This document shows positions 16,368 through 16,748 of a stretch of 56,522 nt of DNA, piece after piece. The first letter of the stretch is position 1. Every line of letters begins with the position of its first letter. The DNA is taken from sequence record PQ783785; one strand, written 5' to 3'. The position numbers were made by a program, and so were the translations under genes. Below the pieces are notes generated by a model that did no database searches, was not told the DNA's origin, and saw nothing but the letters and a program-made list of their open reading frames with translations. The DNA comes from Escherichia phage PDP46.

Positions 16368-16748
16368 TTATTCCCCAGGGTGACGGATGTTTAGATCCGG
16401 GAGAATTTGCATCGGGTTAAACGTAACACGATAATGATACTGATCTGTTGGCGAGGGGTCTGTTTGTTCAATGAAATAAGTTACCTCCGTGGTTAACCCC
16501 ATAAAGTGTTTCTTAACGTCGTTCGGACCAGTTTTACAGGTGATTTCGATCTCTTTGCTAGTGTTCTCACGGGCACAACGACCTTCGATAGACAAAAGAT
16601 ACTCGCCATTACGAACGTTATAGAAAACGATACGACGATTTACTTCAAAGTTAGCTGCAGCGGTTGCAACATTACGACTGGCAACATCAGCAGCGTTATC
16701 ACAGGCTGTCAGGGTTGTTAACATTGCGCATAGAATCAGTTTCTTCAT
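16368..16748 (-). CDS. Lipoprotein (signal peptide, lipobox LTAC, Asp at +2)
   Basis: 126 aa starting MKKLILCAMLTTLTAC-DNAAD. Confidence 0.6.
   Translation of the reverse strand: MKKLILCAMLTTLTACDNAADVASRNVATAAANFEVNRRIVFYNVRNGEYLLSIEGRCARENTSKEIEITCKTGPNDVKKHFMGLTTEVTYFIEQTDPSPTDQYHYRVTFNPMQILPDLNIRHPGE

Follow-up and report, generated by a model that had tools for sequence, protein, structure and literature searches.

A PF25682 lipoprotein of Escherichia phage PDP46 with a predicted inner-membrane retention signal

The 56,522-nucleotide sequence of Escherichia phage PDP46 (record PQ783785; the whole of this stretch is called the window below) is essentially the complete genome of a 9NA-like (Nonanavirus/Sashavirus) coliphage. 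Its rightward head genes are broken up by a block of leftward genes, running from 17147 down to 14272, and the second gene of this block encodes the small lipoprotein described here. The gene is a minus-strand open reading frame (ORF) that occupies exactly positions 16368-16748 and consists of 126 codons and a stop. According to the ORF list and direct reading, the protein of 126 amino acids starts with MKKLILCAMLTTLTAC and continues with DNAADVASRN, and the N-terminal stretch of its translation reads MKKLILCAMLTTLTACDNAADV. The predicted signal peptide comprises residues 1-15 (16704-16748), with an MKK n-region followed by a hydrophobic h-region. It runs into the lipobox L13-T14-A15-C16 (16701-16712), in which Cys16 is encoded by a TGT codon at 16701-16703. 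The mature domain, residues 17-126, is encoded at 16371-16700 and is modeled as a helix and a small six-stranded beta-barrel or sheet, followed by a conserved C-terminal tail.

The signal peptide is laid out as MKK / LILCAMLTT / LTAC, and the h-region has a mean Kyte-Doolittle hydropathy of 2.1. As hallmarks of a signal peptidase II substrate we took a basic n-region, a hydrophobic h-region, a lipobox of the form [LVI][ASTVI][GAS]C and a cysteine at position 15-35, all of which are found in the window lipoprotein, with Cys16 as the lipobox cysteine. A rule of the PROSITE PS51257 type, evaluated with the cysteine at position 16, asks for Lys or Arg within the first seven residues and for no Asp, Glu, Arg or Lys in the six residues preceding the box. 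The window lipoprotein passes this rule as well, as do just 3 loci among the 1344 start/ORF combinations in the window; the lipobox pattern is therefore not due to chance. The signal peptide with lipobox LTAC and Asp at +2 that the initial annotation had described is thus present, and the lipobox is kept in 82 of 82 complete homologues examined. In each of these the cysteine precedes the strand RR[IV]VF by 21-22 residues; the spacing is 22 in the near-identical copy of KarinMuster_Bas82 (locus L001) and, by direct count from Cys16 to Arg38, in the window protein. Because the cysteine stands at this fixed distance throughout, lipidation can be considered a defining property of the family, with no variable tether. 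Together, these features support the prediction that the window protein is a lipoprotein processed by signal peptidase II.

The ORF at 16368-16748 is a real gene under strong constraint. It differs from the KarinMuster_Bas82 copy by nine synonymous and two nonsynonymous codons, and comparison with the copy of Salmonella phage SP069 gives a nonsynonymous rate (dN) of 0.037 and a synonymous rate (dS) of 0.91, a dN/dS of 0.04. Another ORF passing the lipobox rule is located at 50526-50723 on the plus strand and encodes 65 amino acids (...VTLASC, then IVGL). The corresponding region of KarinMuster holds a coding sequence of 65 amino acids, Bas82_0077, annotated 'lipoprotein'.

The residues following the lipidated cysteine carry information about the destination of the protein. 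Avoidance of Lol export of the E. coli type relies on Asp at position +2 without an adjacent basic residue, usually with Asp, Glu or Gln at +3, a rule that is much weaker outside the enterobacterial group (PMC6469965). The mature N-terminus of the window protein is C-D-N-A-A-D, with Asp17 at +2 and Asn18 at +3 (16695-16700); the Asn is neutral and not one of the three residues usual at that position. A similar picture emerges from the 10 enterobacterial lineages collected. Asp occupies +2 in seven of them: the 9NA-like group, Salmonella phage PCSE1 and a Serratia prophage (all CDN), Pectobacterium phage MA2 (CDS), Serratia phage Smarc1 and Pantoea phage LIET2 (both CDV), and Erwinia phage Ea9-2 (CDI). 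Erwinia phage Yoloswag has Asn-Asp, two lineages have Pro, and none has Ser or Thr. In the 80 other copies, Asp is found at +2 in 18 and Ser or Thr in 41 (Fisher p = 0.004 for Asp and 0.0016 for Ser/Thr), a comparison made on a small sample (10 versus 80) of lineages that are not fully independent. The excess of Asp and the lack of Ser or Thr in Enterobacterales point to selection for staying in the inner membrane in just those hosts to which the +2 rule applies. Retention of the window lipoprotein in the inner membrane of its enterobacterial host, as the initial annotation had predicted, is hence well supported by the sequences, if not proven. Proteus phages Stubb (L086, T5-like) and SJ_PmiM (L091, T4-like) both have Pro at +2, unlike the Asp of other Enterobacterales copies, which could reflect either a host-specific sorting adaptation or shared ancestry.

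Two AlphaFold2 models of the protein agree with each other, with predicted local distance difference test (pLDDT) values of 77.5 and 80.5. Both place a helix from mature residue 3, followed by six strands that extend to about residue 95 of the precursor with a pLDDT of roughly 90. The last 30 residues are placed by neither model, including the second one, which was built on 88 sequences with the Streptococcus/Staphylococcus branch among them, yet these residues hold the family-invariant Y104, Y106, P112 and P117. Conservation of a tail that the models leave unplaced suggests that it may fold on a partner or in an oligomer. Searches of the PDB with the single sequence and with the profile of alignment A1 gave no match at E <= 10. 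No solved relative is known for the modeled fold.

Several residues of the protein are strongly conserved. The codons of Cys58 (16575-16577) and Cys71 (16536-16538) delimit a segment, 16536-16577, across which the two cysteines, both invariant in alignment A1, probably form a structural disulfide. In the homologue of Streptococcus thermophilus phage CHPC1062, the one member of its branch that was read residue by residue, both are replaced, by Met and Val. Streptococci are not known to have a general Dsb system. A pair that is kept in the main family and gone in CHPC1062 is what would be expected of a structural disulfide in an exported protein, and it fits an extracytoplasmic location. The Lys79-Lys80-His81 stretch (16506-16514) contains two residues, K80 and H81, that are invariant family-wide, including the Streptococcus/Staphylococcus branch (alignments A1 and A2). 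Eight residues (N26, F34, G56, K80, H81, Y106, P112 and P117) do not vary across the full family, and three more (R38, S24 and N33) hardly do; the window protein has the eight invariant residues as well as the spacing of 21-22 between the lipobox cysteine and RR[IV]VF.

The protein is a full-length member of Pfam family PF25682 (Phage_VG64), which it matches with E = 1.5e-46 and 157.7 bits against a gathering cutoff of 27, residues 4-121 aligning with positions 9-126 of the 127 in the profile. It also matches PHROG 478 with E = 3.9e-46. The window gene is accordingly a new member of a known, functionally uncharacterized family, some members of which carry the NCBI/UniRef name 'beta-sandwich lipoprotein'. 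Homologues 25-55% identical were detected by tblastn in 936 of 50,697 phage records (~2%). By host, these include phages of Mycobacterium (349, among them D29 with its gp64), Bacillus (192), Gordonia (79), Streptococcus (51), Staphylococcus (47), Streptomyces (32), Arthrobacter (31), Proteus (17), Vibrio (16) and Erwinia (13). A scan of one genome per species yielded a further 321 genomic copies, mostly at ~50% identity, in Burkholderiales, Alphaproteobacteria, Acidobacteria, Planctomycetes, Verrucomicrobia, Paenibacillus, actinomycetes and bacteria of the candidate phyla radiation (CPR). An exhaustive profile search returned 1302 clusters at 50% identity, all of them single-domain proteins of 84-213 amino acids. 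The family occurs in sipho-, myo- and podophages alike, with siphophages, T4-like, T5-like, N4-like, phiKMV-like and jumbo phages among its carriers. In a Pfam scan of 48 members, LPAM_1 matched 20 and the only other matches were weak, uninformative ones to DUF6491; for the window protein, an NCBIfam scan gave signal-peptide-level noise only and a PADLOC scan gave no match. In the CPR group, copies of Candidatus Colwellbacteria (L036 and L052) adjoin long ORFs resembling aminoacyl-tRNA synthetases and SmpB, which, as judged from sequence alone, are not obvious prophage genes. This setting hints at a chromosomal domestication.

Among its closest relatives, the gene is accessory. A 2-kb probe around it is 95-96% identical to Escherichia phages AVIO78A, KarinMuster_Bas82 and PJ16 and to Sashavirus 536P12. 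In 9NA and Sasha this island contains no homologue (hmmsearch, nothing at E <= 10, against 2.9e-62 for the KarinMuster control), and no DNA-level copy of the gene was found in complete E. coli genomes. The corresponding island of Sasha encodes gp32 (L097, 3277-3567), an unrelated protein of 96 amino acids with a transmembrane domain; the island may serve as a cassette site for alternative envelope-directed accessory proteins.

The leftward block starts with a gene for 127 amino acids at 16764-17147 on the minus strand (PHROG 4334; a coding sequence of 384 nucleotides in Bas82), the stop of which is separated by 15 nucleotides from the ATG of the lipoprotein gene. Downstream, the remainder of the block (14272-16364, minus strand) comprises small ORFs of unknown function in the ORF list and PHROG search, and an endonuclease-like ORF of 307 amino acids. 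The latter, at 14272-15195, ends the block, matches PHROG 681 with E = 1.4e-65 and has repeated CxxC motifs; it could be a homing endonuclease and might add to the mosaic structure of the island.

A sigma-70-like promoter precedes the operon at 17194-17230 on the minus strand. It contains the motif at 17211-17230, a -35 element TTGACG (17217-17222), a 17-nucleotide spacer and a -10 element TATCTT (17194-17199). The motif, AATAATTCTTGACGGATTAC, occurs 14 times in the window where 0 copies are expected, namely on the minus strand at 1467, 3574, 5292, 8728, 10951, 12093, 17211, 25537, 44406 and 44469, and on the plus strand at 17525, 39504 (weak), 49774 and 52001. Each copy combines a -35 TTGAC with a spacer of 17-18 nucleotides, a TAnnnT -10 element and, 40-80 nucleotides downstream, a Shine-Dalgarno sequence and ATG, so that the consensus reads tTTAAAATAATTCTTGAC(G/A)nATT(A/G)C, 17-18 nucleotides, TAnnnT. 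Most copies head leftward islands and replication or early operons, and the motif is conserved in KarinMuster_Bas82 at the homologous place upstream of the lipoprotein operon. This promoter family is real and looks sigma-70-dependent. The initial annotation had the lipoprotein expressed from a conserved early promoter family, and the family itself stands; however, the nearest copy, at 17211-17230, is found 463 nucleotides upstream of the lipoprotein ATG with one gene intervening, which makes the lipoprotein gene second in its operon, and the copy at 17525 faces the head genes. No terminator-like site was detected on the minus strand between the 17211-17230 promoter and the lipoprotein gene. 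Early expression is plausible, given the sigma-70-like promoter and the position of homologues in early or replication blocks of other phages.

The divergent region between the copies at 17211 (minus) and 17525 (plus) has further features. An inverted repeat of 26 nucleotides (17243-17268 and 17301-17326; 92% complementary, 32-nucleotide loop) could represent an operator or an insulating hairpin. At 17379-17510 on the minus strand there is a very hydrophobic ORF of 43 amino acids, MGSMRLPIPFKPLLIAATFTTYTTLLFIYVYYVYYKK..., which is a hypothetical protein in KarinMuster (Bas82_0032). Directly downstream of the 17525 promoter copy, the ORF at 17562-17960 (plus strand) contains three tandem VEPVTTA repeats.

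Homologues in other phages are located among replication or early genes, which lends indirect support to early or middle timing. The D29 homologue lies between the helicase gene and gene 63, that of CHPC1062 after recT/ssb/rusA, and that of Pectobacterium phage MA2 just before the primase gene. Across 83 loci compared, no neighboring family recurs in more than three; the lipoprotein gene is therefore a stand-alone module.

In PHROG 478, RefSeq and the KarinMuster_Bas82 annotation the protein bears the name of a recombination directionality factor (RDF), for which the database label is the sole argument. 'Site-specific recombination directionality factor RDF' is the name given in NC_001900 (D29 gene 64), NC_023007 (Tsamsa gp79), NC_023579 (Ea9-2), NC_048086 (Stubb) and many others. 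Where GenBank and RefSeq records are paired, the former has 'hypothetical protein' and the latter (NC_) 'RDF', while elsewhere submitters wrote 'lipoprotein'; we traced the label to no experiment. An RDF would be expected to be a cytoplasmic partner of an integrase, whereas the family has a secretory lipoprotein signal in all 82 complete homologues and a probable disulfide. It is moreover abundant in lytic phages without an integrase (D29, T5-like Stubb, N4-like Ea9-2 and phiKMV-like MA2), and the KarinMuster record (58508 bp) carries no integrase annotation between positions 6134 and 58508. The conserved secretory signal, the integrase-less lytic carriers and the names in paired records therefore identify the label as a propagated misannotation. 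For practical purposes RDF identity is refuted, and we give it virtually no chance of being correct.

One experimental study of the family was found, a preprint by Pollenz et al. of August 2026 on mycobacteriophage D29 (bioRxiv 10.64898/2026.08.27.747656), in which the tests of gene 64 covered toxicity, plaque size, liquid-lysis kinetics and potassium cyanide (KCN) triggering only. D29 gp64 was predicted to be a lipoprotein by SignalP 6.0, and its overexpression, either as wild type or as the C31Y variant, was fully toxic to M. smegmatis. When D29 lacking both holin-like regulators of LysA2 was selected for recovery of lysis, five out of five mutants carried C31Y, a substitution of the lipobox cysteine, and lysed early. 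Deletion of gene 64, on the other hand, left plaques, the timing of lysis and the response to KCN triggering unchanged. The authors of that preprint regard the family as restricted to actinobacteriophages (bioRxiv 10.64898/2026.08.27.747656), a range that is contradicted by the spread found here. No further literature was found under the family names, and the mycobacteriophage toxicity screens we checked concern other lipoproteins.

Tentatively, we favor a function of the window protein as an accessory PF25682 lipoprotein that acts at the membrane surface on an envelope target conserved among hosts. Transcribed by the host RNA polymerase as the second gene of the leftward operon, the protein would be exported through Sec, lipidated at Cys16 and then held by Asp at +2 in the outer, periplasmic leaflet of the inner membrane. 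The same compartment would be the default location of the family in Gram-positive and mycobacterial hosts. The folded domain is predicted to begin no more than about three residues after the lipid anchor, and none of the homologues has a flexible tether; such a protein would sit directly on the membrane surface. Its target would be something that does not vary among bacteria, such as a lipid-linked cell-wall precursor, an anionic lipid or a conserved loop of a membrane protein, a choice that we hold loosely; a phage-specific receptor or tail component is unlikely. Engagement of the target would perturb envelope integrity or growth, which would explain both the toxicity of the D29 homologue and the holin-independent lysis caused by the mutant in its anchor cysteine. 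The benefit to the phage would be dispensable and conditional; it may lie in conditioning the envelope or tuning lysis, and perhaps in protecting the infected cell as well. It is the combination of cross-phylum spread, independence of tail type, a dN/dS of 0.04, the lack of a tether and the toxicity in D29 that argues for a protein lying flat on the membrane and engaging an invariant bacterial component.

A number of points weigh against this proposal. The target is only hypothetical, and many non-enterobacterial Gram-negative copies have Ser or Thr at +2 and could be outer-membrane proteins. The phenotype of D29 C31Y may be neomorphic, as an unprocessed prolipoprotein could damage the membrane non-specifically. 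Deletion of D29 gene 64 gave no lysis phenotype, and toxicity was measured only in M. smegmatis, with a homologue ~45% identical to the window protein (bioRxiv 10.64898/2026.08.27.747656). Lastly, a host-conserved target would also be compatible with exclusion as the biological payoff. A more far-reaching version of the membrane-surface proposal sees in PF25682 a pan-bacterial class of phage effectors. Docked to the outer side of the cytoplasmic membrane, they would use the invariant Lys-His, Arg, Asn and Tyr residues to bind a single, invariant component of the envelope, for example the pyrophosphate-sugar head of undecaprenyl-linked cell-wall precursors. We regard this version as decidedly improbable; if true, the family would provide protein inhibitors of envelope biogenesis that need no change to act in hosts ranging from E. 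coli to mycobacteria, Firmicutes and CPR bacteria.

Of the alternatives, superinfection exclusion at the inner membrane, in which the anchored lipoprotein would block DNA entry of later phages as do TP-J34 Ltp, T4 Imm and P22 SieA, is a minor but real possibility. It agrees with the accessory, patchily distributed nature of the gene, with the early or replication blocks in which homologues reside in other phages and with the predicted location, for which Ltp sets a precedent among lipoprotein exclusion factors. However, known exclusion proteins are lineage-restricted, whereas PF25682 crosses phyla and is found with every tail type, podophages without a tape measure protein among them. A dN/dS of 0.04 bears no arms-race signature, the D29 homologue is toxic, the modeled domain is rich in beta structure as opposed to the all-helical Ltp, and the PADLOC scan came back empty. 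We find it rather unlikely that the protein is an accessory lysis factor, weakening the envelope from the periplasmic side and making lysis by holin and endolysin more efficient. The cytotoxicity of D29 gp64 and the ability of its C31Y variant to restore and accelerate lysis without both LysA2 regulators speak for such a role, but D29 deleted for gene 64 keeps its plaque size and lysis timing in every background. In addition, the lysis cassette of the window, at 35951-37468, is ~19 kb away, and the lipoprotein gene appears to be transcribed with early-type genes; all other phages examined likewise have the gene outside the lysis cassette, within early or replication blocks. An o-spanin was rejected as a candidate: the match to PHROG 16495 covers residues 1-21 only, and a Rz-like spanin is already present in the lysis cassette (37070-37468).

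Small membrane-anchored periplasmic proteins are often immunity factors. In such a role, the window protein would shield the membrane or wall from virion lysins, as T4 Spackle does, or from lipid-II-targeting toxins in the manner of LanI; its predicted location and accessory nature fit, and its conservation would follow from a universal ligand such as lipid II, though overall we consider this quite a remote prospect. The candidate folds in this area (MliC/NlpE-like lysozyme inhibitors, double-psi beta-barrels or lytic transglycosylases, and LanI-like or Spackle-like proteins) had no fold or profile support. Receptor masking from the outer membrane, the mode of action of T5 Llp and Cor, was one of two functions that the initial annotation had put forward, and it is very improbable. 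The protein is a phage lipoprotein with a weak PHROG match to Cor (E = 0.05), but this match is limited to residues 1-30, essentially the signal peptide. The outer membrane is the site from which Llp and Cor act, and Asp at +2, with the inner-membrane retention it predicts, is incompatible with that location; masking is therefore unsupported. The presence of the family in phages of Gram-positive hosts, which have no outer membrane, contradicts it as well, as does the position of the gene between head genes, far from the tail fiber genes and not next to a receptor-binding gene. Of the initial annotation, then, the sequence observation was correct and the inference on localization good, while the masking half of its functional interpretation finds no backing.

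The preferred assignment, an effector at the membrane surface, bears on a family that is found in ~2% of phage genomes and in prophages of distant phyla and is strongly conserved, yet bears a wrong name that is spreading through RefSeq and pipeline annotations. A coliphage copy with an enterobacterial inner-membrane sorting signal opens E. coli genetics for finding its target. If that target is a universal envelope component, the family would define a phage-host interface of a new kind and might offer an antibacterial lead; if the protein instead serves exclusion, no factor of that type is known to be so broadly distributed.

Comparison with known systems places the window protein apart from the better-studied phage lipoproteins. 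Like T5 Llp and the Cor proteins of T1, phi80 and N15, it appears to be a small accessory phage lipoprotein made during infection. Llp and Cor are known only from FhuA-using phages and are typically encoded beside receptor-binding genes; they have no homology to the window protein beyond the signal peptide, and the latter differs further in its predicted signal for retention in the inner membrane and in its conservation across phyla. The best precedent for exclusion at the outer face of the cytoplasmic membrane is the lipoprotein Ltp of the Streptococcus thermophilus prophage TP-J34, which is located there and stops the injection of DNA by way of the tape measure protein. Ltp is, however, all-helical, with tandem helix-turn-helix-like repeats, and encoded in a lysogeny module, whereas the window protein is modeled as a helix plus beta-barrel and its CHPC1062 homologue is encoded in a replication module. 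The o-spanins (Rz1-like) are likewise phage lipoproteins with a signal peptidase II signal, and the match of the window protein to PHROG 16495 is weak (E = 0.038); they differ in being targeted to the outer membrane and paired with an i-spanin in the lysis cassette. For the fold of the modeled domain, the Sm-like or Hfq small beta-barrel is a candidate relative. A homologue over the full length, ~45% identical to the window protein, is D29/L5 gp64, the founder of PF25682 and the 'novel lipoprotein' of Pollenz et al. The mycobacterial protein is anchored in the only plasma membrane of its host and faces no Lol sorting decision. Otherwise the two have in common the lipobox, the spacing from cysteine to core, the cysteine pair and the KKHF, EQ and YxYxV motifs, as well as a gene located among early or replication genes.

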